DNA of 64,000 nucleotides from Uloborus diversus (Eukaryota). The notes under the pieces are model-generated. The model searched no databases. It had not been told where the DNA came from and was given only the letters and a program-made list of their open reading frames with translations. The translations under genes and the position numbers were made by a program. Each line of letters opens with the position of its first letter. Position 1 is the first letter of the stretch. The stretch lies in the NCBI RefSeq assembly GCF_026930045.1, contig NC_072740.1, positions 29,492,384 through 29,556,383 of the forward strand, given 5' to 3'. Of this stretch, positions 4,724 to 61,034 are shown in pieces.

Positions 4724-4833
4724 ATTCTTCAAAACTTCCTTACATGGCAACTCTTCGTAATGTTAAGAATTTAATTTTGTCTGGAATATCACCTAAGCAT
4801 CATGAGAAAGTTTTAAAATACTTGGGAAACAAA
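4724..4833 (+). CDS. RO60: TROVE/Ro60-like gene exon (DSSKLPYMATLRNVKNLILSGISPKHHEKVLKYLGNK)
   Basis: Acceptor ttttacttttactag|ATTCTT (AG 4722-4723); donor AACAAA|GTAAGG (4834-4839); LPYMATLRNVKNL…KVLKYL aligns with Ro60 MPLTALLRNLGKM…EKLCNEKLL (TROVE core). Confidence 0.7.
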
Positions 4834-5760: not shown

Positions 5761-6195
5761 GTTACATTTTTAGCTAGTTCTTAATTTTTACCATGCAATT
5801 AATTGATTAAAATTTGTTAATCACAAGTGCAAGGGGGCAATCACTACTTCTTAATGTAACCAAAGATGGAATAAATTTGCATTTTGGATACTTCAATTTA
5901 AAAGAAATTACCATACGTTCAGACTCAATACTTCTGTTATTAAGTTACATTTTTTCTTATAACACAAATTACATTATAAGTTACATTTTCAGCTAGTTTG
6001 TACTTTTTGCTATTCAATTAATTGATTGAAATTTGTTAATTACAAGTGCAAGGGGACAATCTTTCCTTCTTAACATAACCAAATATGGAATAAATTTGCA
6101 TTTTAGATACTTCAATTTCAGAAAATTACCTTACCTTCAGACTCTGTATTTGTGCCTTAATATCACATTTATGACTCCCTCTTTTGGTTTATATG
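5761..6195 (+). repeat. tandem duplication (2 x ~215 bp), starting exactly at the putative donor of the 5579-5760 exon
   Basis: 5761-5971 (gttacatttttagctag…ttaattgattaaaatttgttaatcacaagtgcaagggggcaatc…) is repeated at 5972-6190 (gttacattttcagctag…ttaattgattgaaatttgttaattacaagtgcaaggggacaatc…), including the ORF-track twins MLITSARGQSLLLNVTK… and MLITSARGQSFLLNITK…. Confidence 0.8.
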
Positions 6196-9637: not shown

Positions 9638-9803
9638 AATTCAAAATGCATCACTAAAACTCTTGCAAAACTACAAGAAAACTATCAGTGCTGCTGTAGA
9701 AATATCAGCCTTACATAATTTGCAGCCAATTCCAGGAAAAACATTAGTCATATGTGAAATATCGAATTCTATGATTAAAAATTTGAGAGGTAAAAGACAA
9801 AAG
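9638..9803 (+). CDS. RO60: TROVE/Ro60-like gene exon, vWA/MIDAS-like segment (IQNASLKLLQNYKKTISAAVEISALHNLQPIPGKTLVICEISNSMIKNLRGKRQK)
   Basis: Acceptor atattttttttttttcag|AATTC (AG 9636-9637); donor CAAAAG|GTAAAAC (GT 9804-9805), chosen over the upstream GAGAG|GTAAAAG because only it gives phase 0, matching the next exon; aligns with Ro60 [39 protein letters not shown]. Confidence 0.7.
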
Positions 9804-10675
9804 GTAAAACCTTCTTATCTCAACGTTACTTCCTAACCTATTCTATTCTGATATTAATGGAATGTTACCGTAATTTTAATTTTGTTTCTCTTTGGGAGTA
9901 GATCATCTAAAATATGTGTTCAAAATTTGCTTACATTCATACTTTATGAAAGTAGGAAATAAAATTACTACACATTTTCCTTGTATTGACTAAGTATCAC
10001 AACTCAAATTGTTGTGTACTTTGATTGCTTTCAGTTAAAAAATTTACAGGTTTTAAGCTTCGTCCATAATAATATCAACATTAATGTTTTTTTTATTATT
10101 CTTATTGAATTTGATGAGCTTTTTGTTCAGTTCGTCGCCAAAAACTATTATGTATTTTATGTAGAATAATTGGACGACAAGGCATTATTTAGAAACACAA
10201 TAACTATTTTATTTACAAGTCAAAACATCTCTTGCCATTCCAGAACACACCACTGTCAAATCGAACCATTTCGAGCTCGAGTTGAGTTGAGTTGCAACAC
10301 AACATTGAAAACAATTATTACGAAAATAAAATACATGGAGCAATAAAATATACACAACATAAATATAAGCCTCTTATTTTTGTAAGAATGGGAATAGGTT
10401 TAGCTTTAATATAAAATGAGTAAAACGTGTATTTTGCTTTTTTTTTAAAAACTTGTTTTACAGTGGGTGGCTAAATTATTCAAGACACTACTCAAATTCT
10501 TGTATTTTCAAGTTTACACTCATTTTTTAAAGAAATAAACCTGAACCACATTTTTCTTAACTCTACATAGCAACTTGTATCATTATTATTGTTTTTCAGA
10601 AGTGGCAACAATACCAGACTGCATCAGTTTACAAACATTTGAGGTTATTTCAGTTTTAGTCTCTGGTGAGAAAAA

Positions 10676-14155: not shown

Positions 14156-14314
14156 TTGCAAGAGACGTGTTTACTCACTGGTTTGATGTGCTTAAGGGCA
14201 TGTGAAGATTGCAAAATGACCATTCTGCTTAACTTTGAAAAGCAGGAAAGCATTGTTTTAAATGAATGTGATCAGTTTCTGGAAGTTGTTATGAATGTGT
14301 GTGAGAAATTCAAA
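14156..14314 (+). CDS. RO60: TROVE/Ro60-like gene exon (LQETCLLTGLMCLRACEDCKMTILLNFEKQESIVLNECDQFLEVVMNVCEKFK)
   Basis: Acceptor gtatgttttttttag|TTGCAAG (AG 14154-14155); donor TTCAAA|GTAAGT (14315-14320); phase 0 at both ends; TGLMCLRA…ILLNFEKQESIV aligns with Ro60 [25 protein letters not shown]. Confidence 0.6.
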
Positions 14315-14706
14315 GTAAGTGCAATTTTTTTTTTGACAAAATAAATAAATATTGTAATGGGCTCAAATACTACTGAATGAAATATTTTGCATTTGAGATG
14401 TTTTCCCCTCTTGTGTTTCCTTTCTCTCATTTTTATCCATACTGGAACATATGTTTAGAGATGTGCCATGTGCCCGGTTTTGAAAATTATTATTATTTTG
14501 AATCTACACTATATTAAAATCTATGTGTCTGTCAATCTGAAACTTCAATTCAAGAACCATTGGGAGTTGAGAGTTGAACAAGGTACCAAAAAACTCAAAA
14601 TTCAATGAGTAACCCATTTTGCCCAGTCGCATCTTTGTATGACTTTAATTCGCAGTTTATTCATTAAACATCAATCAGCATTCTTTTGTTCTCAACAAAC
14701 TTTCAG

Positions 14707-14750
14707 GTTATTCCATTACCAAAGATGAGACCAAGAAAAATGGGTCTGTG
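14707..14750 (+). CDS. RO60: TROVE/Ro60-like gene micro-exon (VIPLPKMRPRKMGL-)
   Basis: Acceptor caaactttcag|GTTATT; donor CTGTG|GTAAGTTG; phase 0 in, phase 2 out; the IP matches Ro60 …SQIPAGG…. Confidence 0.5.
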
Positions 14751-15073
14751 GTAAGTTGTAATGCTTTTAACTTTTCACTCCAGGGTCCCTGTACCTACCA
14801 CAATTTGTGGTTTAACCAGTTAGATGGAAAGCTGAAGACAGCTATGATTTTTTGATCCACACCATTAACCGAGCAATCCCTGGTCCAACACCCCCAGAGG
14901 TACCAGGATTTTGTGACCATGAGCATATTTAATGTCCCCCAGTCACCATTAATGAAGACAGTGGATCTCCGTCCGGCTAGGATAGAACCCGGAACTCTCC
15001 AATCACGAGTCCAATGCCCTCCAGTCACAAGTCCGATGCCATACCCATCAGGCCATCGTGGCCTTAAGTTGTA

Positions 15074-16754
15074 CAGTGCGGTGCAAAAGTTTCAGCACAA
15101 CCAAAATCTGTTGATAAAAAGAAAAGTACACTCCAAAAAGCTTTGAAATTTTTACTGTATTTAAACACTCAGCGTACAAATTCACGTTTCAAATTTCGAA
15201 ACAATTCATAGAAATTAAAATAAGATTTCATAAAAAAAATCAAAATTTTGCTGTCACAAAAGGTGAGTCACAAAAATGAAATATTTACATTTATTAAAGG
15301 ATAAATGTCTTTTAGTAGTCTATGGTGTCACTATTGTTCCTGATGAACTCGAATTTGCAATTTTAAATTGTTAGCACAAGACATTGGAATGTTTTGGGTG
15401 TAAGACTGTACCAGGCTTCCTCGATTGTTGATTTTAGCTCTTGTACAGAGCAATACTACATCCCATTCTCGTATACGTCACGTGAGAGAAGTTTCCAGAT
15501 GTTTTTTATGAGATTGAGATCTGTGGATTGAGTGCTGGCCAGTTCATTACACTAATATTTTGAGACACAAGTCATTCTTTTGCACTGTGGGAAGTGTATT
15601 GAATTGTTGTCTTGCTGGAAAATCCAATTAGAACCCAATAGGACTTCACGAAACGCCAACAAATGCTGGCTTAGAGTATTTTGATATGCTTCTTAAGTTT
15701 ATCTGCCCTTTAAAAAGCTAAGGGAAGTTCGTCCATTGAAGCAAAAGCGCCCCATACCACTAGCAAGCCACCACCTTGTTGCCTACTGAATATGCACTTT
15801 TGATCTTCCTTCAAGTTACGCCAATAGTGTGAGAATTCATCTGGACCATCTAAATTCCATTTTTTTTCATCTGAAAATATAGCACTTATCCATTTGACAC
15901 TATAATGCATGGGGTGTTTTTCCCACTGCAGTCTTGCTTGTTTATGACACTGTTTCAGAAAAGGTTTGTAAGCTAACCTTTTTTTTGATAAATCTTGATT
16001 CATTTATTTGTGTGCGTGTGGTATACGTGATATTTTTTTCAAAGTCAAGTTTTTATCTGATTAAGAGACAAATTTCCAGTTAGAGCCATTCTTTTAATTA
16101 TTCTATCCTCACGAAAGGTAGTTTTTCTCTCCTTCCTGAGCGATACACAGGATTGAATTGTTTTCCACGTTCCAGAATGTAATATATACCTCGTTTATAG
16201 CAATTTGTCATTTCTGAAATTTCCGTAAGGATTTAACTTCAGCTTTCAGCTTCCAGAGTTTCGAAATTTCTTTCAGACAATAACTGCAGAGACTTCGGCA
16301 TCCCGATAACACGTTAAACCATTGCTACACTTTATAATTTGTTGCAAAGAATGCACTGGTCCTTCACGCATCACGTTTCAAGAGATCTTTGCATTAAATC
16401 TGATTTGTGCATAAACTTTTGGGACAGCCAAAAAATGTGGTTTGTGCTTTCTGTGATTTTTTTTTATGGTTACATTTTTCAAAATTTCAGACACATATTT
16501 AAGATTTTACTAGTCATCAACAGTAGAAATTTGAAAGCATTCGGTTGAATAGTTTTTTTTTAAATTCAAAAATTTGCAATGTGCTTAAATGATGTGTGAT
16601 AGTACATTCCCAAACTACATCAAAACCATTTGAAAATCATGTCAAAAAGAGTGACTAATTTGTTTGTATGTTGGATGGATAGCTATTTTTAATGACCTCG
16701 GTTACACCGCACTTTTTCTTTTTTCCCCGAAAAGTGCAGTATAACGAGGGGTTA

Positions 16755-16757
<3 letters not shown>
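15074..16757 (-). mobile_element. Tc1-like DNA transposon (~1.68 kb) with a pseudogenised transposase, flanked by TA
   Basis: Left end TA|CAGTGCGGTGCAAAAGTTTCAGCAC (15072-); right end …AAAAGTGCAGTATAACGAGGGGTTACTG|TA (ends 16757); minus-strand ORF 15710..16003 (…KPFLKQCHKQARLQWEKHPMHYSVKWISAIFSDEKKWNLDGPDEFSHYWRNLKEDQKCIFSRQQGGGLLVVWGAF) is the Tc1 transposase region just upstream of the DDE core; further DDE-like text on the minus strand at 15300-15700 is interrupted by stops. Confidence 0.75.
15290..16650 (-). pseudogene. Tc1-family transposase pseudogene (stops and frameshifts)
   Basis: Only fragmentary ORFs with transposase similarity; no intact ~340-aa frame. Confidence 0.6.

Positions 16758-16831
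<74 letters not shown>
16758..16831. repeat. (TA)n microsatellite, about 36 units, exactly between two Tc1-like termini
   Basis: Perfect TA run between …GGGGTTACTG and CAGTGCTGG…. Confidence 0.95.
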
Positions 16832-16834
<3 letters not shown>

Positions 16835-18333
16835 TGCTGGTAAAAAAAATTGCATCACCCTTGGGTTTTCACAACCATGGGATTATGTGAGAAGTTTTGG
16901 TCGACCGGTTAACAATAAATGTATGTGAAATTCTGCAAAACTCAGGGATCGCGCTAAGGATTTCGAATCGTTCGCCAGTAAATTCCCCAATTTTTAAAGT
17001 GTTAGCCAAATTTCAAAGGTTTTAGTCAAAGACTAACTTAAACTCATTTTAAATGTATTTTTGTCTGCAGAAATATTTAATCAGTAAGTGAAGTATAACT
17101 TAGTTTTTGACAATTTTTTGAGGATAAGGGCAGGGGTATATCCAGGAATTTTTGTCCGTTTTTAGGAATTCGGTGAGAAAAAAAAATGCTAATTTCAGTA
17201 GTTTTTCCAAATCATATGTAATTTTTCAAAGGAAAAAATGGCTAAAAACAACTTCATGTGATATTTATCATTCTTTAATAAATTTTAGATTAGAAATAAA
17301 AGCTTTAAACAAAGTAAAGACTGCATTCCCATCTTACTCCAATGTTTCAGACATTGAACACAATGAAACAAACGTGCCATTCAACAAGCCATCCGCCATC
17401 ACTTTCTACTCAGTAGCCACGCTGCGCACTCGATATCCAATCAGCGAGAGGCGCAAGTATAGTGACGCAAAGAGGTGAGAGGCAAATGTCATCCTTCCTC
17501 CGATCCGATGAACGGTAACGCTCCGCTCCAATGCTAACGCGCGTGCGCGCACCTCAATCTGCTCGGAGTGTTCCGAGGATAAAACAAATTTCAGTGATTT
17601 CTAGTCTGGGAGTTTTGTGAAAGGTTCTTTTTTAGGGGTCGGAATTTTGTGACGGGTCCGCTTTTTGGAGTCCAAATTTTGTGAACGGACTTAATTTTTA
17701 TCTAGATTGACTTCTGAAGGGAGATTTTTTTTCCTCTGTGTATATTTTAGAGAATTTTCTGTTCGCCAATAAATTCGCCAAATTCGAATTTTGTTCGCTG
17801 ATTTTATCGTATTTGGCGCATTGGCGAATGCTTAACGCGGTCCCTGAAAACTTATGAAATAAACATTTAACAGCAGGAATCCGATAATTGTTTACTTAGA
17901 AAGGGGCTCTTTCCGGGCCAAGGTAAACTGCTGACCCCATGCTCATTTTTCCATTTCTGAACCTGCGTGTGAGTTAAGAGAAAAAAAATTACTTAACCCC
18001 ACATCAATTTAAGTCTAATGGCAAGATAAAGGTTTTTAAATTGTTACTTACCAGTTTTGCCCTATGGCACGAAGCAGAATCATCCTGGAAGATGACGTTT
18101 GGAACTGAAGTAAAGTGATCATGGATAGTAGGAAGCAATTTCTCCTCCAAAATGCCAACATACCCCTGAATGTTTACTGTTCCTTGCACAAAGTGAAGGC
18201 TACTAACTCCTTAATCAGAAATACATCCCCAAATCATCTGGGATACGGAACGCTTGACTGTGTGTTGAATGCAGTCGGGATGATACTCCTCTCCTTTGTG
18301 GTGCGGGTGATGCAATTTTTTTTACCACCACTG
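16832..18333 (-). mobile_element. second Tc1-like element (~1.5 kb, internally degenerate) with near-perfect 30-bp TIRs
   Basis: Left TIR CAGTGCTGGTAAAAAAAATTGCATCACCC (16832-16860) vs right GGGTGATGCAATTTTTTTTACCACCACTG (18305-18333), each flanked by TA; minus-strand ORF 18004..18189 (…VPNVIFQDDSASCHRAKLVSNNL…) is a Tc1 DDE fragment (compare the canonical IFQQDN…H motif). Confidence 0.8.
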
Positions 18334-18349
18334 TATATATATATACACA

Positions 18350-19585
18350 CAGGGTGTTTCTGAACTCTTGGGCAAAACTTTAAGGGGGGATAGTACATAT
18401 GAGGACAAACAATATAATAGCAAAAGTAAGGGTCCCAAACGTCTTCTGAAGGAGATAGGCACCATTTAAGTGTAGGGTCAAAAACTTAAATTGTATGCCT
18501 GAAGGAAGCCTTTCAGACCTCAGAAGTATTCAGCAGAGTAGAAGATGAAAAAAGCACAGGACAAACAAAGTCTTAAGGGAAAAAAATCCTTTTGTTTTAA
18601 CTTATTAGATGAGCTAATAAGACAATGAATTTGACTTACAATGAATCCAGTTCAACAGGAACATTAAAAATATATTGTCATTCTAATGACGAACAACATC
18701 TCATCAAAATGGCTAACAACTTTTTTTGAATTAACTTAGAGAAAATGTATTTTCACAAAATAGAACATTCAATATGATTACGCAATTTTCCTTTGAACTG
18801 GACTAAACGACACTAAAATGCAGACATCATACACAAAAAACATTGAGGGAGAGAGAGCCCTCAAACCTGCAACATTATATAGACGGGAAAACACATGGTG
18901 GAACAACCAACATTTGAAATTTTAATCCCTTATGGAAAACAACAAGCTCTGTTGCCACACACTAAAACTTCAGAAAACATCTCAGAGTTATCACATGCAG
19001 GAACTAACCAAAACCCAATCCAGTTCAGATGAGTGAATCCCCCAACGACGTCACTACCGATTCAACGTTGTTTGTATGTTTATGTAGGAGCAATTTGTCT
19101 GAACCCGATAACCTGATCTGCATGGGGCAAAAACGAATTTTAGATGAAATAACAGTGGGTTATTTTATTATTTTTTTATCTAAAAGAAAATTTGAGTAAA
19201 ATGTTAATACAAATGATCATAAAAAATGGAAAAATTGGTCGATTTGGCTGCGGTTTTCACTAAAATTATTCTTTTTACCAGTATTTTTTTGAAAATAAAT
19301 TTTGAAGATGTAGTTTAAAAAATGCTGATAGAGGGCGCTTTAGACTTTGGAGTAACGAACAACTGTTTTTTACCGCTATTTTTGAATCTCATTTTAGCGA
19401 AAACCGAAAACCAATGAACCCATTTTTCCGTTTTTTATGATCATTTGAAGTTTTTTACTGTAAACTCTAATGCCGCCTATCTCCTTTGGAAAACGTTTGG
19501 GACCCTTATTTTTGTCATTATATTGTTTGTCCAGGTGTGTACTATCACGACTTAAAGTTTTGCCCAAGAGTTCAGAAACACCCTG
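18350..19585. mobile_element. non-autonomous DNA transposon with ~115-bp terminal inverted repeats (hAT-like CAGGGTG terminus), ~1.24 kb, no coding capacity
   Basis: 18350 CAGGGTGTTTCTGAACTCTTGGGCAAAACTTTAAG…GGGTCCCAAACGTCTTCTGAAGGAGATAGGC is the reverse complement of 19477-19585 GCCTATCTCCTTTGGAAAACGTTTGGGACCC…CTTAAAGTTTTGCCCAAGAGTTCAGAAACACCCTG; flanking 8-mers tatataca / tatacata match 6 of 8 (a weak candidate 8-bp TSD). Confidence 0.7.
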
Positions 19586-19742
19586 TATACATAAATTTTT
19601 TTATAAAAAGAAAATTTTTTGCTACTTTTCTAACTAATGTAACAAACATAAGTAAATGTCACATTGTAAATAATATCAAACCACTCGCAACAAAATGTTT
19701 AACTTATATTTTGAACTTGTTTTTTCTTACTCCTTAGTGCAG

Positions 19743-19830
19743 TCCAGATGAAGTCTTCTCATACTCCAAAGTGCCTTTGGAAAACATTTTGTACCATTAT
19801 TTAAGACCAGCTACTATGTATGCAACTAAG
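19743..19830 (+). CDS. RO60: TROVE/Ro60-like gene exon (-PDEVFSYSKVPLENILYHYLRPATMYATK)
   Basis: Acceptor cttactccttagtgcag|TCCAGATG, using the AG at 19741-19742 (the only nearby AG that restores frame from phase 2); donor ACTAAG|GTATGTT (GT 19831-19832); PDEVF aligns with Ro60 PADVFIVF. Confidence 0.5.
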
Positions 19831-20606
19831 GTATGTTAGCTAATTTTTTACTCCTCTATATCAGTTCTGTTTGAGATGACATTTTCTATCTCTTGTTTTG
19901 GTTTTGAAAATTATGTTACTATTAATTCAAGTACTGGAAGTGATGATTATTGTTAAAGAAATTATTTAAGTGAAAATCTCATAAGTCGGATTGGCCTAAA
20001 ATTTGTCTTATGCATTCATGAGGCTTTAAAAACTTGCCTTTAGAATGGCAAAATTATTGAAATATTTTGTATTAAATGGCATATCATTAAACATATCGAG
20101 AAAACTCCTAATAGGCATGCCAAAAATGGAGAAAGAATGTCTTACCTATGGGTGTCACACACACACGCAGAGAGTTGCTAAATTTCTTGGCTTGATATCA
20201 GTGGGTTTTAATATATAATTCCATTAAAATTTATTATCTGCGTATCTTCAAGATTCTTATTCAGACCATACTATTTTTGAAAACAAATTAAAATAACAAA
20301 TGAAAGACTGTTCATTCTTATTATTGTTGTTTATTTTATTGAGAAAATAAATAGTGGACTTAGTTTATTCTGCTTACTTCCAGCAATGCTTTTAATATCC
20401 ATGGAGCTCGATTTCTCTTACAGTGGAAGAAAGGCATATGTTACACTTGATCTTCATTAGTATTTAGTCCTTTCTGTTCTAGAAGAAGGGCATGTGTTAC
20501 AAATTAAAAATTGGTCACCTCAGAGCAACAGTAAAATTTCTAATCCCAGAAATAACACTAAGATATCTTATTGTTAACCTGAGACAATGATATGCCTTTC
20601 TTCTAG

Positions 20607-20702
20607 GAACCCATTCAGTTGTTACCCGCATCAGGTGGCATTGAGCCACCAAAGGTGGCGAACGAGGGTTGGCGAGCAAAACGAATAGGGAGCATCCCCT
20701 AG
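20607..20702 (+). CDS. possible terminal exon of the TROVE/Ro60-like gene (EPIQLLPASGGIEPPKVANEGWRAKRIGSIP*)
   Basis: Acceptor tgcctttcttctag|GAACCC; phase-0 open frame of 31 codons ending in TAG 20700-20702; locally GC-richer than the surrounding intron; weak similarity to the Ro60 C-terminus. Confidence 0.25.
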   Translation, partial: EPIQLLPASGGIEPPKVANEGWRAKRIGSIP

Positions 20703-21928
20703 TTTTATACCATTACATGTTTTTTTCTATTTATTCAACTTCAGAGGTCTTGAAAAACGAGCTGGTTTTTCTCAGTTAAACATGTGTAGTTAATATTTTA
20801 GCACTCCTATTGCTGTTGAATAAAAAAACATTTTTCATTGTTCTGTAAAACCATAAAGTAAATATCTGAACTAGGTAGATATTTTTAAAAGTAATGTCTC
20901 ATGCTTTGCATATGATGAGGGTAAAGGAAGTCATTTGTTAAAAAATGAGCATAATGTCATTTCTGTCTTTTATTTTTTTTCACAGTTATTACATCTGGTA
21001 AAAACATTTACAACATGATTTTAGATTTTAATAGACTTTTAGTAAATACATATGTTTAAAGAAACTTTTATGAAATGTTGCATTGAAAGTATTGATAACA
21101 GAAGCATTTAAAATATTCATATGTCTTGTTAAGAGTGGTTACAAATTATTGAGCTTATTTTGCACACGAAGAAATATATCCATAACACTGCCTGAAGCAA
21201 AAGAAAAGGTATAAAAACAAGACATCATAGGCAATATTCTGGCTTTTTATAGAGGTGAAAGGTTACTTTATAATTATTAAAAATTTTCAAATGCTTTTAC
21301 TTTAGACAGCTTTCTGCGTTACAAAGAATTTGGTTTAGAAAAAATTACTCTGCATATTATTAATATAGGAATATCCCTGATGCCAATAGTAAATTAAACG
21401 TTTCTGAATAAATTTTTAAAAAATCTTATGTGCTTTAGTTAATCTTCTGATACCTCTAAGATTACTTTCATATGCTGTTTTTGCAGAAGTGTCTGAGACA
21501 AACCAGGTAAATAATATAAAATTTTAAAAATTGAAAAGTGACTGACCTGCAATCCTATCAGCGAAAAGTCATTAATGTTAAACAAAACTCAAACTTGATT
21601 TCTATCTAAACATTTTTGTTTGGTGCTTCACTAGTTATCCAGAGAAGCTGGAATCACAGAGCTGAAAACTATTTGAGTTAATCAATTAGTAAGGTTTGTT
21701 TCCTTAACCTCTTTTCATATTTGTTGACTTCTTAAAGAGTAAGAAATGTGCTCCAAATAATAATATTATAAGGTTGTAAAAATATCTGAATTGATAATAT
21801 ATGAGTGTTGTGTATACAAGTAGCTTTTAATTTGGCAATAAATGTTTGCAATTGCTTTACGTATTTTTATATTACTTTCAATAAAAGCTTTTTCAGCTTA
21901 AATAGCAAAAAACATCCATTTTAAAGTT

Positions 21929-22237
21929 TCAAATAAATCTTTTTACATAAATACTTAATATTACAACTGTAAAAGTTAGGTAATTATATGGAATAAAACC
22001 TTGAGCTCCATTGGAGAAACAATCTAGATCAGTTTTGAATGCATCAATAAAAGACTTGTTCATATTAACACATTTTGCTTCTCTTAGATCATCTATTGAA
22101 AACTGTGCACAATTAATGTCACTACAGCTGTGTTGATAGTCATATTCACGTATCCACTCCCATATCCATGCCAGTTGGCAATCACAGTGTAGTTGGTTTC
22201 CAGATAGTTCAAGTTGCTGCAGTTGACTTTGTGCTCC
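21929..22237 (-). CDS. chp: chaoptin-like protein, terminal coding exon: last LRR, LRRCT and hydrophobic GPI-signal-like tail, stop TGA (21929-21931)
   Basis: Acceptor ttattctatttttccag|GGAGCACAA (AG = complement of 22238-22239); translation GAQSQLQQLELSGNQLHCDCQLAWIWEWIREYDYQHSCSDINCAQFSIDDLREAKCVNMNKSFIDAFKTDLDCFSNGAQGFIPYNYLTFTVVILSIYVKRFI*; CDC..W..W is the LRRCT signature and matches the chaoptin C-terminus (…LNCDCDLGWVEFW…); small residues (SNGA) followed by a hydrophobic tail are consistent with GPI anchoring, as in Drosophila chaoptin. Confidence 0.7.
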   Translation of the reverse strand, partial: GAQSQLQQLELSGNQLHCDCQLAWIWEWIREYDYQHSCSDINCAQFSIDDLREAKCVNMNKSFIDAFKTDLDCFSNGAQGFIPYNYLTFTVVILSIYVKRFI

Positions 22238-22939
22238 CTGGAAAAATAGAATAATGTCATTTCTAAATTTAGTACTTTCATATTAATAAATGCTATAGTT
22301 ATTATTTCTAATTCATCAGAATAGTACTCTTTCTATTTTTTTTATATTAAACTGCAGCATTGTAATAATATCAATTGAGGCATTACGAACAACAACAACA
22401 AAAAAAATTATTAAATTTTGTTTTAAAGCTTTAGCTATTCTTCTTGAATTAAATTTTAAAACCAATCATTATTTTATAGAATTGAATTCCTTTTCAAATT
22501 TTCCTTTTTGGGATACATTTTTTGGGATGCATGCAACTCCTAAAAACATCCAGACACTGAGTATTAGGGTGGGTTACTGTCCTGTGGTAAAAAACAAAGA
22601 TTACGATTTTCGTTGGGCAGGGCAAGAAAATGGTGCCAAATAACATTTTAAGGTTATATATAAAATTTCATTCAATAAGGAGATCATTTTGTGCCTCTGG
22701 TTTGAGTTTGAAAAACCTGTATTTAAGGAAAAGTAATCTATCTTTATTAAAAAACTGATAAACAAAATTACAAATATGTATAACAGCTTAAAATTTTCCA
22801 AGTATTAATCATTTATTTACTACAATATGATAATCATTAATTTAGAAAATTTAAAATATTCATCTTTAAATAGCTTGAAAGTCCTTCTTACAATCAAGTT
22901 TTGGCATAAGTTTCTGGGACTGCACAATGTAGTTGAAAC

Positions 22940-23165
22940 TTCTGTCAGTTCTAACTGCCCTTTCACAGGGGTGCCCAATCCCCTGCATAAGGACGATGGT
23001 GCACTCCCTCAAATGCTGGGGAGTATCCCTGTCCCCCTGCCAGAAAATAAGATCAAAAACCCTGTCAAATTCAAATCAACCCACCTAAAAATTTTAAGGC
23101 TGCAGTATGCGCCATGAACCCCCCCCCCCTCTGGTGGGCTCCCCTGCCTTTCAACAGCCTGTTTA
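22940..23165. repeat. interspersed repeat with a C11 tract, in the chaoptin intron
   Basis: ggggtgcccaatcccctgcataaggacgatggtgcactccctc…ccatgaaccccccccccctctggtgggctcccctgcc resembles the reverse complement of 26215-26385. Confidence 0.5.
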
Positions 23166-24557
23166 TGGCATGGCAGGCATAGTAAATGCAGTTCTTTTCT
23201 GCCTGAAACAAACTGTTGAATATGTTTGTCAGAGACTGATTTCAGAATTGATGATCAGACACATTTTTCCAGTCAATGAGATTGATGTTAGATTCTGCAT
23301 CAGACTTAACAACAAGAGTTTCAAAAAGTCAGAGTCCATTGTGAGTGGTCAAATGTAGTTGTTAGTATTTTTGTATTTGCAAGATGAAATGTCAAATAGC
23401 AGTGCACTAGCTTGGAAAAATGGTTTTAATTATTTCCTTAGGTGTTTTCGGTCAGGATTTCAAACGATAGTTGCATTTCAAGAGGTAGATTTTTAGCATC
23501 TCTCACTCATTTATGTTGCACGGTAGGCAGGAAGCGTTTGACCAAATTCACACATCTCGGCCAATTCTAACAACTAAAATGGCAGGTGTGAATTTAAACT
23601 AGATGCAAATTGAAAGTTTCATTACTTGTTTCTGTAAGCGATGTAGCATTTATTATTATTGCAATCTTACATAGAACAAATCCTATTTGGGTAAGGAAAT
23701 CCAAATTGCAAACTCAATCCGGAGGCAAAAAGACTGATCAGAATAGAATAAAATTTCACAGAATGCTCTATTTTACACCTTTAAGTATGCTTAATTTTGT
23801 ACTACAAATTGAATTTGTGGAATGTTGATATAAAATTTTTAAATAATTTAATTCCATTTGAAAAATGGATGGGGACATGCCAAAAGTGTGACTTTCTGGT
23901 TAATTTAAAAAATTTTGTGGAAAAACTACATGAGTTGTTGTTTTAATAAGAGTAGAATAACAACAGGTAAGTTATTTCTAACTATTAAAAAATAAAAACA
24001 TTTTCTGAGTTAACAATTTTTGTGTTAGGCTACTGGGACATAATATTGTTAAGACTTTGGAGAATCACCAATATGTCAAAAAACATTTTAACATGAAATG
24101 ATTTTTACTCAATTTTTATTGTAACACAATGATACAACCAAATTGCATGAAAACTGTTACACAAGTTTAATTTTTTAATGGTGATTATGAATCTAATGAA
24201 AAAAAAAAAAAAAGATTGCCATTAGAAATTTGAAAGTTGATTGCATATCTTTATCTCAAGACTATCCCTTAGAAAATTTTTATAATTTAAATTTTATATT
24301 GCATAGTATTTCCGATAGATTGACTAATTTTATGTGTTTTTAGCTGGGGCAAAGCTAACTTGGCAGTGTACATACTGTTGTTATCAGGTTTTTTGTACCT
24401 TTCACAATGTTGATAAGTTGACTCTACCTGAAATATAGTATAGATAGTATTGAAATGAGAAAAAGTATTTAATTTTTTTCTCCATACCACAGGTTAATTG
24501 TTTGTATTTATTCATATTTCTTTTCACATTAATTTTCTAAAGTAAACAGCAAGTTAC

Positions 24558-25349
24558 CTTTTCAAATGTAGTAGGTATTCTTTCAACTGTCTGTAATTTG
24601 TTGTTTTTAAAAGATGCTGTGAAGTTCTTTACTTCATTCATTGTGTAAAACATGTTTCGCGAGAGAGTTAGTAGGTTGGTATTTCTAATATCCAACTTTA
24701 AGTTTGGTGTCTGTAAATTAGTTAAAGCTGATTCATCTATGTGTTTCAAATTTCCACCTTCCAGTACAACAGATTTTACTGATTTAGGAATACTCCCATC
24801 AAGTCCTTGAAACTTTTTGTCTTCAATGTGCAAGTGTATTTCTCTGAGCCCATTATTTTTTTGCAACAACTGACTTACATCAATGTTTTTTAATTTGGAA
24901 TACAAATCCATTTCTATTCTTCTTAAAGCAGTTAAGCGTTGAAAAGCAGCTTTCTGAATGTCCTGCACTTTCAGATTTTTAATTATTAGCTCCTGTAAAC
25001 GTTCCATGTTTCGAAAGCTATTTTCCTGTATTGCTTGAATGGGATTCGATTGCAGATAGAGTGACCTCAAATTATGCAAATGGGACCATACATTGTTATG
25101 TATATTTTGCAGTAAATTGTTTGAAAAATCTAACACTTGCAACTTCTTAAGGTGTTCAAAAGCTTCTGACTGAATGGTTTGAATATTGTTTAAACTTAGA
25201 TTAAGAAATAAAATATTGTTAGGCTCCAAGACTGGTACACTTATCAGGCTTGTGTTTGCAAAGTTCAGAGATTCCAAGCTATTAGGCAGGCTATTTATAA
25301 TCCATTGTGGTACCTCTTCAATTATGTTATGCGAAATGTCCAAAGAAAT
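24558..25349 (-). CDS. chp: chaoptin-like protein, coding exon 2 (264 codons of LRRs)
   Basis: Polypyrimidine tract + CAG acceptor on the minus strand (tctttttactttacag|ATTTCTTTGGAC, AG = complement of 25350-25351) in phase 0 with exon 1; LRR-rich ORF (…SNNLLQNIHNNVWSHLHNLRSLYLQSNPIQAI…LDIRNTNLLTLSRNMF…); the terminal TCCLL* of the ORF is read-through, and the real end is AAG|GTAACT (donor = complement of 24552-24557), which joins in phase 0 to the LRRCT exon. Confidence 0.8.
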
Positions 25350-26214
25350 CTGTAAAGTAAAAAGAGTTACATGATGAGTATGAAATTATATTTTAGACAA
25401 TTAATGTGAAACGAACTAATTTTTATTATTTTTTAAATTGAAATGTTTTTATAAAACAGATAAATTTAATTAAAAAAATTGCTCTTTTTGCTAAATTTGA
25501 AGGGCTGACTTTTTTTCAGATAACACATGAATTTAAAAACTTTATTAAATTGATAGAAGATTCTCCTTCCAAAAGTGTCTTTTTAAATAATATCTTCATG
25601 GAGAGTATAGTACTTTAAGTATTTTAAGCTTGAAATACGTTTTATTTTGATTCTTTGGATCTGCAAACTCTAACCAACTTTTAAAAAATCACAGTTTTAA
25701 GTCTGTTATTTTAAGTTCACTACAGTGAAAATTTTTAATTTTACCTATAAGTCAGTGTTTTTTTTTTTTTTTTTTTTTTTGAGGCAGGAGGATGAATTTT
25801 TTTTAATCATTGTTTCCACAACTGAAAGTGCTCAAAATAGCAGCAAAATAATTTCGTATTTATCATTCAAAACTTTTAAAAAATGAATTCAATATTTCAC
25901 TCATAAGTTGCTAAGCTTTAATGAAAACTAACTTGGGGCAAGTTGAAGCCGTCTTAAAGAATGTTAGAATTTCGCAACACTATTTTTTTTTAAATTATGG
26001 TGTTTACATTTCTATTTGTCTTATGTTTTAAAGGTGCCTGAAGATTTTATTATTTTTTTTTATTTACCTCAACTTGAACGTTTTGTGCTACTTATTTATT
26101 TATTGAAATTGAATGCCATGTTAATCAAATTATTAGCATAATTACTTTGAAGAAAATGATACTATTTCCATGAAAAAATAACGATTTTATGTGCATTTTT
26201 AGTTTTCTCGGGTG

Positions 26215-26385
26215 CCCAATAAGGATAGGTCATGGTGCAGACTGCCGTATTCAACGTTTTAGAGGGTGGGTGTTTTCTGGGGTATTTTTCTTTTCTGGGG
26301 GGGGGGGGCTGACTCTGGAGGGGGGTGCACCATCAGTGCCCTTAGGGTCAGGGGCACCCATGGTTTTCTATTGTTCTTAGTTGCA
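26215..26385. repeat. interspersed repeat with a G12 tract, in the chaoptin intron (inverted relative to 22940-23165)
   Basis: …ttttctggggggggggggctgactctggaggggggtgcaccatcagtgcccttagggtcaggggcaccc; reverse-complement similarity to the 22960 copy. Confidence 0.5.
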
Positions 26386-26471
26386 TAAACCTAAACATCA
26401 GTAGTTCAATTTCTGGCTTACTTTTGTGTACATTTGCAAATTATATATTTGAGGAAAATAAGCATACTTAC

Positions 26472-29063
26472 AAGTTTTGGTAGTTTGAATTTCCTTGCTT
26501 CACCAGGTAGAAAGATTCTGTTTTTTGCTATGCTTAAATGTCTTAAATGTTGTAAGCTTTCTATATGACTGAAGTTAAAAGACTTAATTTTATTTCCTGT
26601 CAATTCTAAGGACTGTAATGTTTCTTTAATTTCAAGTAGTGATTCTGTAGGAAATTCAGTTATACTATTATAAGATAGGTCTAACTGTTCTAAAACTGTA
26701 GTTGAAAATAATGTTCTTGGCAAGCTTTCTATTGTGTTGTGAGATGCAAGGAAGATTCTTAATTTATTTTGCTCTTCAAATAAATTACTTGGTAGTTTTT
26801 TAATATAATTTTGAGACAAGTCCAATATTTGAAGACTTCTTAGTCCTCTGAATTCGCTTTCTTCGATGATATCTATTAAATTGTTCCGAAAAACCAAGGT
26901 TTGTAAATGCATCATCTCTGCTACAGCAGAATTCGTGAGATTTGGAATTTGATTATTACTGAAGTCTAGTACATTGATGGAAAGTCTAATTGGGTCAAAA
27001 TAATTATTATCTACATAAGATATATTATTGCTGTTGAAGTTAATGCTTTTAATATTACTTGAAGTGTGACTGGAAGTGTAATATGCAGTTAAATTTTGAA
27101 TTTCATTATGATCAACATCAATTCTCAGTGTTGATAGTCTTCCTACTTGATCAAAAGCCTCTAAGTTGAAGGCAATTAATTTATTATAAGCTACATTTAT
27201 AAACTGAATGTTTGGTAGATTTTGAAATGCTTCATTTTCAATTTCTTCTATGAGGTTTCCTTCTAAGTTAATTGAAATTAATGAATCCAAGTTTAGAAAT
27301 GAAGATTTCTCTATTAATTTTATTAGATTATCATTTAATTGTAAGTGTACTAAATTTTGCAAATCTCTAAATGTGTTCGATTTTAATGAGCTAATTTTAT
27401 TGAAAGCAATTTTTAACTGCAATAAGTTTGGATTATTGATTCCATTAACAAAATTTATTTCTAAATTCTTGAGGTCATTGTGGTCCAAGTTCACAGTTTT
27501 AAGATTCTGAAAAATAGCGAATGATGCTTGGGGCAAATATTGCAAATTATTGTTGCTTATATCTAAGTCTTGTAGTTTTAACAAGTGGCTAAATTTTCTG
27601 TACGGAAAGGTAGACATTTGTAAAGCATTGTGTAGAAATATCTTCTCTAAAGAATGGCCTACATCCTTGAATGTTGTATTTCCAATGTTTGAAATTTTAT
27701 TATAAGATAAATCAAGATGCTTCAGTCCACCAAGTTGTTGAAATGAACCACTCTCAATACTTTCAATCGAGCTTTGAACAATGTACAATTTTTCCATTGA
27801 AGGTCCAATATTTAAAAATTGATGATTTATCTTAGATTTTTGTTTATTAAAAAACAACTCTCTTAGGTTGGGAAGATTTTGCATACTTTCAGAGGAAATG
27901 CCATTCATCTTTGGGCCTCTAATATCTAAATATTTCAGTGTTGTTCCAAAATGTTCGACATCATTAGGTTGAATTGTACCTATTTTATTTCCTGCTAGAG
28001 ATAATTTGACTAGCTTTTTTAAAGCAAGGCTGGGAAACTCAAGTAAATTGTTATAGCTTAAGTCTAAGGTTTGCAATGTATGTGAGACACTATAGAAGGC
28101 ATCATCTGAAATAAATGATATTGAACAATGAGGCATGTATAATTCAGTTATATTTGTTGTCAGAAATGTGTTATTTACTATACTTATTGGATTTCCTTTT
28201 AGTAAAAGACGATTAATATTATTGAAATTCTTAAAACTTTCTGGTAGCAATTCTGTAATAAGGTTGTACTCTAGGTGAATTTCTTCTAAATTGATTTTAT
28301 TCTTTACTTCTTTTCCTTCAGATATTGAAAAAAGTAGATTTTCATTTAGGTTGAGTATTCTCAAATTTCTTAAGTTGGTTAACATGTTAAAAGGTATTTC
28401 ATGAAGCTGATTTCCCATCAGGTTTATGCGTCGTAAGTTGTACAGTTTATTCTGTAATGTGAAATCTTCAATTGAAGTAATAGCATTGTATGCAAGATTC
28501 AGGTCTTCTAGAACTGCCATATTTTTAAAAACATCATTTTGTACATTTGTAATTGAATTTTCAGATAAGTCAAGCACTTTCAATGTGTTGCTGATGCTTT
28601 GAAAATCATCACTTTGAAATGAACTTATGTGATTTGAAGCTAAGTTCAAGTTGTATAGCTTCTCTAATTTTTGTATAGCTTCTTTAGGTACTCGAACTAG
28701 CTCGTTGGTACTGAGATCTAGAATTGATAGTGTTTTTTCAAGTCCTGCTAAAGCATTTGATGGCAGATCACTTAAGAGGTTATTATTAATTTGTAGTTTC
28801 CATAATCCAGTTCCATTCAAACTATTATCTTCTAAAAATCTTAATTTGTTGTTTTTCAAACTCATAATGTAAATAGCAGAATTGTTGATTTGACGGGGAA
28901 CTGTCATAAATGGTATGTTATGGCAACACACTGATCCTAAATCTGGGCCTCCACTTGAACAAGTACATAGTGGATTGAATAAGCAAGGTCTGTGTTGTTC
29001 CTTGTATCTTGATTCGACAATGGCAAGTATAAAAAATAAGCATAATATTTCTTGAAGTCTCAT
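26472..29063 (-). CDS. chp: chaoptin-like LRR cell-adhesion protein, coding exon 1 (ATG at 29063; signal peptide, LRRNT, ~33 LRRs; 864 codons)
   Basis: Continuous 881-aa minus-strand ORF; N-terminus MRLQEILCLFFILAIVES is a signal peptide followed by an LRRNT Cys cluster (CLFNPLCTCS...VCCHNIPF); repeated LxxLxLxxNxI(xxI) units throughout; collinear with Drosophila chaoptin as I recall it (e.g. LEEIHLEYNLITELLPESFKNFNNINRLLLKGNPI vs LDNLHLEYNHIEVLPPNSFKYF...GNPI); the ORF tail after codon CTT (26472-26474) is intron read-through because a canonical GTAAGT donor (minus strand; plus 26466-26471) begins exactly at a codon boundary. Confidence 0.85.
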
Positions 29064-30749
29064 CTGGAAAAAACAAAAAAGAAAGAAATGTTTAGCATTA
29101 GAGAATTCTGATACTAGTTTTTGAGTTTAGGGTGGTGGCAAGGGGGATTAAGGGTTACATCCCAGGTTCCTTGGTTTTAATCCACATTACCAACACTAGT
29201 ATACTATCTTTTATAAGTGTAACGACTCTTATGACCCCGCCCCCCATAAGGTAAATTCTAGCTGTGCAAGTATTTAAGTTTGCGAATCAGTAACAAGGCT
29301 TGACATGTAGCTGTATGTATATGACCTGGAGCCTGAGGGATTGCTAGCACAGGTAAAGGTGTTGGTCATGACCTGTCCTCTCTTAACACGACTAAACATA
29401 AAAATGCATTTTGGGAGCTTCAATTTCGAGAAATTACTGAGGGAGAGCCCTTGACCCCCTGGTGGCTGGATATTATACTTTTAACTCTCACTTCCAATGA
29501 GTATGCTCATATTTCAATAATGCCCCCCCCCCCAAAACCATAAACAGGATCTACTTTAGGGAGGGAGGTTTCATAACAATCTTTTCATGTGTATATACTT
29601 GTATACTAGACTAGGAAACATTTCGTGTTTCAAGCTACAGACCAACGGTTGACCCCAAAAACCCTTCTCTTGTTTCTCTTCTGCTCATCACTGGTTCACT
29701 AGTTTTCTACGCATCGACCAGTACAGTTAGCTCACATCCTTCACTCTTTGCAAAAAAAAAATGATATTGTTTTCAGAAAGAAAAAAAAAATCACTGTATT
29801 TTACTTTAAAATGTTAACACCAAGTGTGAGTGTTAAACTTTATAAATATGAATTAAATATTTATATTCAGAATGAACATCCTTTTAATTGTGTATTTGAG
29901 TGTTAAGGTTTTGCATGGAATTGCTTGTACCATTTAGAATAAAAATCTTCTTTTTCATATGTAATGGCGATTTATACTTTTCAATGGGTGTTAAAGACTG
30001 GTCATATGATTTTTGACCCTGAGCTTAACCTGAATTCGCTCATATTTTAGAATTCTAAACTTTTCCCACTGCTAAATTGCAATTCCAAAACACATGTATA
30101 GTGTAATACAATTTAATTTTAAGATGTAATGAACAAAAATGTCACCCTCTTAAAACATTAATGTTATTTAGATTATATTTTAAAAGTTTCTAATATATTT
30201 TATTCTAGTTAATCAAATGGTTAATCAGGGGCATTTAAAATTGATTTTAGCAATAGCTATCATCGATTAACATGCACTTAAACTCGTGTGTTAATACTTT
30301 CCTTATGTTATTATATCATCCATTTATTTGAAACGAAATTTAATTGTCGAAATTTTTTTTTTTGGCATGTATTCAAATGAAGAACAAAACATTTCCTAAC
30401 AGACTAATTTAAATTTTAAATCCCTCTTTTTATTGTAACACAGAAACCATAACCTAATTTCTTATAAGCAGTTGTATAAATTTGTTTATAGGCAATTAAA
30501 TTTATGTTCTCAGTTATTCACTAAAATAAATTGACATGTGGCCATACTTATCAGAATCTGCCTGGGGGAGGGCAAGCACGGATCACGTGCTGAAGTTAAA
30601 ATTTTAGTACAACTTTTAAATTTTGAGTAACTATTATTAAATTTTAAGTAAGATAGAGATTGTTTATGGAATTTTATAAAAAGTGATGAAATAATAGACT
30701 AGTGCATTCTAATTGCAATGTTTATTTTTTAAACTGTCATGTGTTCACC

Positions 30750-31226: not shown

Positions 31227-32587
31227 CACTCCTGTTTGTAAAAATTGCAACACCACGAAGGACTTGCGCGAGTGAGCTGAAAATTGCAGGAAATGCAAAG
31301 TAGGGCATGATATGCAAATGACTAGAATTGCAGACCAGTAGCGCAATAGTAATAGACGGCTGTAGCGAGGTGTGTATGATTATCGGTGGTTATATGCAAG
31401 AGTAAACGTTAACTGAATCGTTACTATGCCTCTTCGACGAAAGAAAGCGAAATTTGAGCAAATTTCGGAGTTTGAACTGGCAGAATCGTCGGCCTTCGTG
31501 AAGCTGGACTGTCTTATCGTGCAGTAGCTGCTCGTGTGCAGTGTAAAAGCAGCACAATCATGCGTGTTTGGAAGCAGTGAACGGACGAGGGTCGGACAGC
31601 TTGGAAATCCGGGAGTGGACCCCGAAATGTGACGTCAGTTCGCGATGACAGACACCTGGTGCGTATGGCGCTGACGGACCGCACAGCTTTTTTCTAGGCA
31701 ATTGGCAGCACAGTGGTCAACAGCTACAGGTGTTTCATTGTGTGCTTTATCAATTAGGAGACGTCTGCTGCAGCTTGGACTGCGCGCAAGGATTCCTTTA
31801 TACAAGATTCCTCTCACTCAAAATCATCGCCGCTTGCGGCTACAATGGGCCAATGTGCATAGGAGCTGACGTGCTGATTGGCAGCAGGTCGTCTTTTCTG
31901 ACGAATCCCGTTTCAATTTGTGGCACTATGATAGCCGAATTCGTGTCAGGCTACCGGTGAACGGCACATTATCGAACGCCACAGTGGACGAACACCCGGA
32001 GTAATGGTCTGGGGTGCCTAGCATATCATGGACGATCACAATTGCTACGAATTGTGAGCAATTTGAACAGCACCCGATACATAAACGAAGTTTAACAGCC
32101 TCAAGCTATTTCCTTTCCTGCAAGGATTGCCAGGGGCTGTATTCCAGCAGGATAATGCCCGTCCACATGTCGCCAGGACTGTCAAATCCTACCTTGATTT
32201 GCAGCAGGTACAGCTTCTTCCTTGGCCTGCATATTTCCTGGATATGTCACCGATTGAACATGTGTGCGATTTCGTTGGGCGGCGTCCCGCTCGTGATCCT
32301 CGTCCTGTTGCTTCGACAGACGAACTTTGGTTGCGCATACAAACAATATAGAATACTCTTCCGCAGGCAGATATTCGAACTTTGTTTCACTTCATGCCGA
32401 GTCGTGTAGCAGCTGTTATTGCGGCGCGTGGTGGCCACACAAAATACTAATTTCTATCTCTTTTTATCGTTTGTTTGGTTTGAAAATGTAATCATTTATT
32501 TGTACCATTACCACTCAACTGTGCATTAAACTTCATTGAACTATGATGCTTCCTTCATGGTGTTGCAATTTTCACAAACAGGACTGT
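31227..32587 (+). mobile_element. Tc1-family transposon (1361 bp) inserted at TA inside a satellite unit; transposase pseudogene
   Basis: TIRs CACTCCTGTTTGTAAAAATTGCAACACC (31227-) and GGTGTTGCAATTTTCACAAACAGGACTGTG (-32587), each with a flanking TA; internal frames match the widespread arthropod Tc1-like transposase (SRQLAAQWSTATGV, SIRRRLLQLGLRARIPLYKIPLTQNHRRLRLQWA, FQQDNARPHVARTV, LPWPAYFLDMSPIEHVCDFVGRRPARDPRPVASTDELWLRIQTIWNTLPQADI) but with several stops and frameshifts. Confidence 0.85.
31427..32447 (+). pseudogene. Tc1-like transposase pseudogene
   Basis: Starts MPLRRKKAKFEQISEFE…; ends …AARGGHTKY*; reading requires at least 3 frame changes; in-frame stops after LDCLIVQ and DPEM. 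Confidence 0.8.
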
Positions 32588-60875: not shown

Positions 60876-61034
60876 TTTTAGCTCGATCACATTATACTTA
60901 TGAGGACTGGAGCAAGTGATACAGTTTGCGCGGACATTAGGAGTACCATGTGGTCATTTCTTCATAAATACCGAGTTACTGTTAACCCTGAACTATTATA
61001 CACAGACGTTGATTTCTGTCTAAGGACTATGAAG
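60876..61034 (+). other. candidate coding exon of an unidentified gene (possible first coding exon containing ATG)
   Basis: Acceptor-like tattatctattttag|CTCGATCAC and canonical donor ATGAA|GTAAGTC; stop-free for 53 codons: LDHIILMRTGASDTVCADIRSTMWSFLHKYRVTVNPELLYTDVDFCLRTM; composition is more balanced than the flanks; no family recognised. Confidence 0.25.

Follow-up and report, generated by a model that had tools for sequence, protein, structure and literature searches.

Gene structure at the locus

This study examined a 64,000-nucleotide (nt) stretch of the Uloborus diversus genome (contig NC_072740.1, positions 29,492,384 to 29,556,383; called here the window, with positions counted from its first letter), in which a gene of three coding exons for a long leucine-rich repeat (LRR) protein lies on the minus strand. 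We consider it very probable that this gene is the araneomorph spider orthologue of chaoptin (chp), and that it is intact and under purifying selection. The parts of the gene are listed below, where a slash in a motif, here and throughout, marks a boundary.

26472..29063, minus strand: coding exon 1 (2592 nt, 864 codons), with the signal peptide, the LRRNT-like cysteine cluster and most of the LRRs
25350..26471, minus strand: intron 1 (1122 nt, GTAAGT...TTTACAG)
24558..25349, minus strand: coding exon 2 (792 nt, 264 codons), with LRRs
22238..24557, minus strand: intron 2 (2320 nt, GTAACT...TTTTTCCAG)
21929..22237, minus strand: coding exon 3, with the last LRR, the LRRCT-like cap, the C-terminal hydrophobic tail and the TGA stop (21929-21931)
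21826..21873, minus strand: putative polyadenylation-signal-like hexamers (AATATA from 21873, ATTAAA at 21831)
29064..29088, minus strand: pyrimidine tract and CAG acceptor, the putative end of an intron in the 5' untranslated region (UTR), TTTCTTTCTTTTTTGTTTTTTCCAG/ATG

When the three exons (26472-29063, 24558-25349 and 21929-22237) were joined in phase 0 by script, a coding sequence of 3693 nt was obtained, consisting of 1230 amino acids (aa) and a stop, with zero internal stops. The program-made list of open reading frames (ORFs) on the minus strand holds an 881-aa ORF at 26418..29063 and a 268-aa ORF at 24537..25343. Exon 1 ends in ...KLPKL and is followed, exactly at the codon boundary, by a GTAAGT donor. 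Exon 2 is preceded by the acceptor CTCTTTTTACTTTACAG, whose context was read as ...CTTTTTACTTTACAG, and it closes with GAA AAG/GTAACT, a donor that bypasses the EK-VTCCLL-stop which reading through would give. Exon 3 (102 codons plus TGA) is preceded by the acceptor TTCTATTTTTCCAG and encodes GAQSQLQQLELSGNQLHCDCQLAWIWEW...CFSNGAQGFIPYNYLTFTVVILSIYVKRFI before the stop, with NQLHCDCQLAWIWEW in between. The original prediction, made from the letters of the window, had described these same points, and they held throughout: the 864-codon first exon and its GTAAGT on a codon boundary were confirmed by reading the sequence, the phase-0 acceptor of exon 2 by reading and by the scripted join, and the bypass of the apparent stop by the join to the third exon, while the predicted protein of about 1230 aa proved to be 1230 aa exactly. 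Since exon 1 runs for 864 codons in DNA of 30-33% GC, and the whole protein is 63% identical to an annotated spider protein, the ORF is not a product of chance. Downstream of the stop, AATATA lies 56 nt and ATTAAA 98 nt away, with a canonical AATAAA found only at 955 nt (20974).

Chaoptin identity and phylogeny

The homologue search covered a collection of 5.8 billion proteins, with 120 matches listed. The best match was "chaoptin-like [Stegodyphus dumicola]" (P0001, 1235 aa), with 63% identity at 100% coverage, followed by an unnamed protein of 1233 aa (P0002, 61%) and "chaoptin [Nephila pilipes]" (P0003, 61%); no database cluster was more than 65% identical to the Uloborus protein. Insect chaoptins were recovered at 32-34% identity over 96-100% of the length (E 1e-188 to 1e-160, 600-650 bits), whereas the "chaoptin-like" proteins of insects and Limulus showed 27-28% identity and about half of that score (330-370 bits for these paralogues), and artichoke proteins were lower still (24-26%). 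The named proteins among the matches listed are chaoptin, chaoptin-like and artichoke, and the rest are unnamed LRR proteins. A closer likeness to Toll- or Slit-type proteins, fixed beforehand as the outcome that would speak against chaoptin, was not found: none of the 120 matches listed bears such a name, and the protein has no TIR or EGF domain. Among proteins of solved structure, the best phmmer matches were generic LRR proteins (IGFALS, TOL-1, LGR4/5, TLR3), at no more than 125 bits.

A neighbour-joining tree was computed from corrected identity distances of 39 proteins over 1208 trimmed columns with 100 bootstraps. The query and three spider proteins grouped together at 100% bootstrap, within a 17-taxon clade, also at 100%, that contains the chaoptins of Drosophila, Hermetia, Tribolium, the ant Linepithema and the orthopteran Anabrus, as well as collembolan, sea-spider and mite proteins. 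Outside this clade fall a "chaoptin-like" clade of insect, Limulus and Larinioides proteins, a nematode clade and an artichoke clade. Hermetia chaoptin (P0016), with 75% identity to the Drosophila protein (P0124, 1315 aa), ties the insect clade to the chaoptin that has been studied experimentally. The identification as chaoptin, made in the original prediction, is thus borne out by the grouping with Drosophila chaoptin and by scores of insect chaoptins far above those of other LRR proteins, and the tree placement also serves as the reciprocal check against Drosophila chp, which the gene passed.

The gene could instead be a paralogous member of the all-LRR family, belonging to the "chaoptin-like" clade or to artichoke, in which case it may act outside the eye; we regard this as quite improbable. 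It is true that many database names are derived from similarity, that proteins bearing the name "chaoptin" are spread over three or more clades (Larinioides P0047, Trichonephila P0108, Anopheles nili P0097), and that identity to insect chaoptin is only about 33%. However, the tree joins the query with the chaoptins of five insect genera at full bootstrap, the "chaoptin-like" and artichoke clades fall outside, and insect chaoptins score nearly double the paralogues. The "chaoptin-like" proteins (Limulus P0051 and P0067, Larinioides P0047, insect P0055, P0058 and P0064) do resemble the query in being all-LRR proteins of about 1230-1260 aa, and artichoke and its relatives (P0075, P0105, P0100; 1320-1410 aa) share the long LRR ectodomain, yet the former stand separately in the tree and the latter form an outgroup clade.

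Codon comparison gave dN of about 0.26, with dS saturated (>2) and undefined in several pairs. Since omega was about 0.10-0.13 where computable, we conclude that the chaoptin orthologue of Uloborus is under purifying selection.

Conservation of the exon structure in other spiders

The exon structure of the Uloborus gene is conserved in the spiders compared. In the Stegodyphus dumicola gene (L001), to which the annotated protein mapped back exactly, the coding exons comprise 865, 265 and 105 codons with both introns in phase 0, and exon 1 ends ...LPKL/GTAAGTAT at its donor. The Nephila pilipes gene (L003) has the same three coding exons and the same junctions, so that exon lengths agree among the three species to within 1-3 codons. 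At the protein level, the exons are 66%, 58% and 51% identical to Stegodyphus exons 1 (865 codons, with the matching ...LPKL end), 2 (265 codons, one more than here) and 3, respectively. The introns measure 1.1 and 2.3 kb here, as against 4.2 and 2.1 kb in Stegodyphus. In the alignment with spider and insect homologues, junction 1 (LPKL/ISLD) is gapless, and junction 2 (TFEK/GAQS) shows a single-residue indel. In three more spiders (P0004, P0005, P0006), the genomic ORFs run at their ends past ...LPKL or ...LSKL into V(K/S)..., apparently by reading through the same GTA.. donor. Moreover, P0002 is encoded uninterrupted on a 4021-nt contig of another spider (L002, assembled from run SRR7472191). 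Since the whole ORF is present there without introns, we read the contig as a transcript; it is collinear with our gene model, and the same start codon is preceded by an in-frame stop. The three-exon splice model put forward originally therefore gains support from the same junctions in two annotated spider genes and from this collinear contig.

It seems very improbable to us that the gene is in reality spliced at other junctions or with further coding exons. Two examples may be given: an in-frame acceptor 21 nt downstream in exon 3 (...CAACTGCAG/CAACTT), and retention of intron 2, which would yield a truncated secreted isoform ending ...EKVTCCLL. Such variants would be compatible with the alternative AG at CTGCAG being in frame, with the several spliced isoforms of fly chp (PMC4021355), and with the position of junction 2 at a one-residue indel relative to other spiders. 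Nevertheless, the acceptor chosen for exon 3 has a pyrimidine tract and lies 7 codons before QLELSGN, just as Stegodyphus exon 3 starts 7 residues before QLEMSGN; the exon lengths match those of Stegodyphus and Nephila; and tblastn revealed no extra LRR-coding segments within the introns.

As regards the start of the gene, the original prediction had taken the polypyrimidine-AG directly before the ATG as a sign of a 5'UTR intron and of a non-coding exon further upstream. The same (Y)n-CAG/ATG layout was observed in Stegodyphus (TTTTATTTTCAG/ATG) and in Nephila (CTTCTGTTTACAG/ATG), and the Nephila model (P0003, L003 10001-13071) uses the acceptor, as it splices a 19-codon exon from 3.07 kb upstream exactly onto the site abutting the ATG. 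With the acceptor conserved in three spiders, the suggestion is plausible and well supported. The 19-residue N-terminal extension of the Nephila protein (MISQKYIGFVSKHKLKLKE) is absent from other spiders, and it is probably a translated 5'UTR exon and not real coding sequence. In a similar manner, P0005 begins MLLISFQ/MKF, where ISFQ is the expected translation of a pyrimidine tract ending in CAG. In the L002 transcript, purine-rich bases and not a pyrimidine tract precede the ATG.

A nucleotide comparison of the window with the region upstream of the Stegodyphus gene and with the L002 5'UTR, aimed at the upstream non-coding exon, gave low-complexity matches only and did not locate it. A low-complexity simple-sequence tract at 16750-16840 gave many overlapping blastn matches to the L002 3'UTR, and it looks like a microsatellite-type repeat rather than homology. 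One upstream match at the protein level (window 32085-32348 against L001 5543-5773) was considered as a conserved exon and rejected, as it is a Tc1/mariner transposase relic. The relic in the window (plus strand) reads ...FQQDNARPHVARTV...LLPWPAYFLDMSPIEH..., with a Pfam DDE_3 match of E=0.019 that lies below threshold, and the one at L001 5543-5773 is a similar relic upstream of Stegodyphus chaoptin.

Protein architecture

The protein has a predicted signal peptide at its N-terminus and a cysteine-bearing cap following its last LRR, located as follows.

29010..29063, minus strand: predicted signal peptide, aa 1-18 (MRLQEILCLFFILAIVES/RY), by heuristic
22019..22222, minus strand: last LRR and LRRCT-like cap, aa 1134-1201 (...NQLHCDCQLAWIWEW...C...C)

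The hydrophobic region of the signal peptide, ILCLFFILAIV (11 residues), has a Kyte-Doolittle (KD) value of 3.55, and VES/RY, with V at -3 and S at -1, fits the -3/-1 rule; the start position is common to P0001 and P0002. Between the two ends, Pfam detected LRR families only (LRR_8, LRR_4, LRR_5, LRR_1), and no TIR, EGF or other non-LRR domain. A repeat hidden Markov model built from strict motif matches of the protein itself recognized about 38 LRR units, in line with the 38 LRRs reported for the fly protein (PMC2672165).

AlphaFold2 was run on residues 19-1204 with a 44-sequence alignment. The resulting model (predicted local distance difference test, pLDDT, 88.3; predicted template modelling score, pTM, 0.83) is one continuous solenoid of about 45 LRR turns, with 45 inner beta strands at a spacing of about 24 residues, and strands are present even where the LRR sequence motif is degenerate. 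The original view of an all-LRR protein agrees with both the Pfam families and this continuous solenoid. Foldseek against the PDB returned long LRR ectodomains only (TOL-1, TLR7/8/9/13/3), with 16-22% identity and E about 1e-18, and to our knowledge no chaoptin structure has been solved. The Toll/TLR, TOL-1 and LGR ectodomains share the generic solenoid at partial coverage, but these proteins carry a transmembrane segment with TIR, or 7TM modules, while the spider protein has neither TIR nor EGF according to Pfam.

The two ends of the solenoid are marked by cysteines. In an alignment of nine sequences, C27, C33, C35, C47, C1146, C1148, C1184 and C1201 are invariant; in the larger alignment of 44 sequences, conservation reaches at least 90% for C27, C33, C35, C1166 and C1184, and C47 does not vary. 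Both cap motifs are present, PCxFNPLCTC at the N-terminus and NQLHCDCQLAWIWEW at the C-terminus, and the AlphaFold2 model places three helices in the cysteine-bearing region after the last beta strand. The LRRCT proposed in the original prediction is thus a putative one, based on its motif, its conserved cysteines and the helices, and it gave no Pfam LRRCT match.

Compared with Drosophila chaoptin (Swiss-Prot P12024 as cited in PMC2672165; represented in our comparisons by the Drosophila cluster P0124 and by Hermetia P0016), which belongs to the same orthologous clade, the spider protein is collinear from end to end, in its predicted signal peptide, PCxFNPLCTCS cluster, all-LRR ectodomain, CDCxLxW... 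cap motif, and small residues with a hydrophobic tail. The collinearity at both ends that had been proposed was accordingly seen in the alignment, from the predicted signal peptide to the C-terminal tail. About 38 repeats are detectable by sequence in both. The spider protein differs in its length (1230 as against 1315 aa), in the KRFI at its end, and in being without the insertions that the insect proteins have ahead of the C-terminal cap and within it (alignment columns ~1117-1137 and 1270-1295). It has 13 NxS/T sequons, compared to the 16 potential N-glycosylation sites of the fly protein, 13 of which are used (PMC2672165).

C-terminus and proposed membrane anchorage

The protein ends 29 residues past the last cap cysteine, and within this stretch the residues S-N-G-A are followed by an 8-residue spacer (QGFIPYNY), the hydrophobic segment LTFTVVILSIYV (KD 2.38) and KRFI. 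The corresponding feature is given below.

21932..22009, minus strand: putative propeptide for attachment of a glycosylphosphatidylinositol (GPI) anchor, aa 1205-1230 (omega N1204, with S1203 also possible), by heuristic

Either N1204 (with A at omega+2) or S1203 (with G at omega+2) would leave a propeptide of 26-27 residues, which is a classical GPI layout. Most of the spider and insect members of the clade that were examined, Drosophila included, share the order of cysteine, small-residue cluster, spacer and hydrophobic tail, and they lack a cytoplasmic domain. Exceptions to this layout are the models from the sea spider and the mites. The hydrophobic tail after small residues, as first described, can be read directly, fits the omega-site rules and is conserved in homologues, and the Uloborus C-terminus is consistent with, though it does not demonstrate, a GPI type of anchor, such as Drosophila chaoptin has (PMC2672165, PMC4021355).

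A true chaoptin orthologue might also be a type I membrane protein, held by its C-terminal hydrophobic segment with KRFI as a 4-residue cytoplasmic tail in place of GPI. We judge this unlikely, although among the alternatives weighed in this study it has the most in its favour. The segment FIPYNYLTFTVVILSIYV is followed by basic KR, Stegodyphus ends ...YIGRHI, the arrangement obeys the positive-inside rule, and the strictly hydrophobic run of 12-14 residues is short for a GPI signal. Yet the 18-residue segment, with its P, N and two Y, would make a poor transmembrane helix (its best 12-residue KD window reaches the 2.38 given above), and S-N-G-A placed 10-12 residues upstream of the tail, within a total of 26 residues, is canonical for GPI. 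In addition, P0002, P0124, P0016 and P0008 end in purely hydrophobic tails without a basic stop-transfer, and the fly orthologue itself is GPI-anchored, as cited. GPI attachment remains our preferred interpretation of the tail.

Position of the gene within a TEP1-like intron

In Stegodyphus, chaoptin is nested within another gene, which runs on the opposite strand. The 2010-aa product of that host gene has TROVE, DUF4062, WD40 and TEP1 beta-propeller domains, and the host is read as TEP1 because of them. The family was found from flanking exons by an exhaustive HMMER search. In the window, plus-strand exons at 2492-2599, 3324-3524, 4723-4833, 5579-5797, 9636-9815 and 14165-14314 correspond to Stegodyphus TEP1 residues 40-326, and their concatenated translation matched Pfam TROVE with E=1.1e-4. 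The host exons nearest to chaoptin on either side are as follows.

14165..14314, plus strand: last detected TEP1-like host exon before chaoptin, at the end of the TROVE domain (tblastn, Stegodyphus TEP1 P0220 aa 278-326)
60885..61028, plus strand: next TEP1-like host exon past chaoptin (tblastn, P0220 aa 360-402, E=8e-6; P0222 aa 748-770)

As host exons lie on both sides, chaoptin is therefore situated antisense within a TEP1-like intron of about 46 kb. The gene lies between TEP1 residues 359 and 360 in Stegodyphus and in the same TEP1 intron in Nephila, so the two annotated spider chaoptins (P0001 and P0003) agree with the Uloborus gene in their antisense position as well as in exons, phases and the acceptor abutting the ATG. 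For the exon of Stegodyphus TEP1 residues 327-359, which is small and poorly conserved, relaxed tblastn revealed no counterpart in the window, the interval 14315-21928 included; the exon may have diverged too far, or it may be placed before or after chaoptin. In one mite and one sea spider, TEP1 was not seen within 10 kb of chaoptin. The Nephila annotation gives TEP1 as two models that flank chaoptin (L003 1-3592 and 23589-28896, both on the minus strand), namely an 808-aa TROVE model and a 1819-aa DUF4062/WD40 model; the two probably belong to a single gene, which was broken up in gene calling because chaoptin is nested within it.

The nesting is common to Uloborus, Stegodyphus (Eresidae) and Nephila (Araneidae). 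We would give little chance to the idea that this ancient arrangement has been kept by a functional constraint, such as a shared chromatin or enhancer context, or transcriptional interference of a ubiquitously expressed vault/telomerase-associated gene with one specific to photoreceptors; simple inertia is the alternative.

The location inside the intron of another gene might also be taken as a mark of a pseudogene, a copy that has lately been inactivated or fallen silent. This is extremely improbable, given that the 1230-codon ORF is uninterrupted in AT-rich DNA, that the splice signals are intact and omega is about 0.1, that the nested position is ancestral and orthologous in two other spiders, and that the introns are retained, so that the gene is not a retrocopy. 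An intact chaoptin orthologue is thus the reading that we keep.

Introns, repeats and other features of the window

Both introns of the chaoptin gene are AT-rich, and each contains one GC-rich island of about 150-185 bp. The following repeat fragments were noticed.

26190..26375, strand not assigned: GC-rich dispersed-repeat fragment in intron 1 (inverted copy in intron 2, nhmmer E=7.4e-6)
22967..23119, strand not assigned: inverted, diverged copy of the intron-1 repeat, in intron 2 (nhmmer, Smith-Waterman)

The Smith-Waterman score of this pair is 40, compared with 17.2 +/- 2.6 for shuffles. Self-comparison of the window by blastn at E<=1e-5 showed no repeats in the introns, and Pfam showed no transposable-element (TE) domains in intron ORFs. 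The original description of the introns as filled with TEs was hence overstated, as there is one short diverged repeat fragment per intron and no TE ORF.

Just 5' of the ATG lies a further GC-rich island (29121-29299). A diverged copy of it in inverted orientation was seen at 29544-29659, about 250 bp further upstream (nhmmer E=2.6e-5), and there is a weak third match at 55078-55158. Within the putative 5'UTR intron, the first two could represent a miniature inverted-repeat transposable element (MITE)-like element or two copies of a repeat. No RNA genes were detected in the window by Rfam at gathering thresholds or by a tRNA scan, and the repeats are for this reason taken to be without a tRNA-derived short interspersed element (SINE) signature.

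Further along the TEP1-like host intron, which also holds the Tc1/mariner relic, a reverse-transcriptase fragment was observed at 57228-57590 (plus strand; Pfam RVT_1 E=1.1e-6, 29.0 bits against a cut-off of 29.6 bits). The ORF after it ends ...CCGIYGINCSCKLAYID, which resembles a GIY-YIG motif and has no Pfam match, and the region 57228-58104 (plus strand) may be the remnant of a Penelope-like retroelement. Six other long ORFs in the window had no Pfam match.

Proposed function and significance

Drosophila chaoptin, an LRR adhesion protein that joins photoreceptor microvilli to one another, is photoreceptor-specific and needed for microvillar stability (PMC4021355, PMC2672165), and spider comparative genomics counts chp among the genes of the visual system (PMC13372096). 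The Uloborus gene is transcribed from the minus strand with its three coding exons and, most likely, at least one upstream non-coding 5' exon spliced onto the acceptor that abuts the ATG. By analogy with the fly, the 1230-aa precursor would enter the endoplasmic reticulum through its signal peptide, with predicted cleavage after Ser18, and would be N-glycosylated as in the fly, and the 26-residue C-terminal peptide would be replaced by GPI at an omega site near Asn1204. The ectodomain would then be tethered to the outer leaflet of the rhabdomeric microvillar membranes in the spider retina, where neighbouring microvilli would be glued together by it. Signal-peptide cleavage, GPI anchoring, retinal expression and adhesive function are in this way modelled on the fly, while the exon structure and its conservation, the orthologous grouping and the predicted fold were observed for the spider gene itself.

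Several points count against this interpretation as a whole. The orthology tree is a distance-based neighbour-joining tree and not a maximum-likelihood one, and the identity to insect chaoptin of about 33% is modest. The splice junctions are drawn from consensus signals and cross-species conservation, and neither LRRNT nor LRRCT gave a Pfam match on the isolated termini even at E<=10. The hydrophobic tail spans no more than 12-14 residues and has KRFI after it, whose basic residue would also suit a membrane-spanning anchor with a minimal cytoplasmic tail. With regard to function, our literature search on chelicerate chaoptin yielded a comparative-genomics mention only. We know of no chelicerate in which the function of chaoptin has been tested.

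In summary, this is an ordinary and expected gene: annotated chaoptin orthologues exist for other spider genomes, and spider comparative genomics already makes use of chp (PMC13372096), so that no new question is opened. The conserved nesting in TEP1 is a small curiosity, which explains the artefact in the Nephila annotation where TEP1 is split into two models. Our data add a correctly structured chaoptin orthologue of a spider. Its exon structure, the acceptor next to the ATG and the putative C-terminal anchor signal are shared among araneomorph spiders, and the gene is of use in annotating genomes and, as a candidate marker for rhabdomeric photoreceptors, in work on the spider eye.

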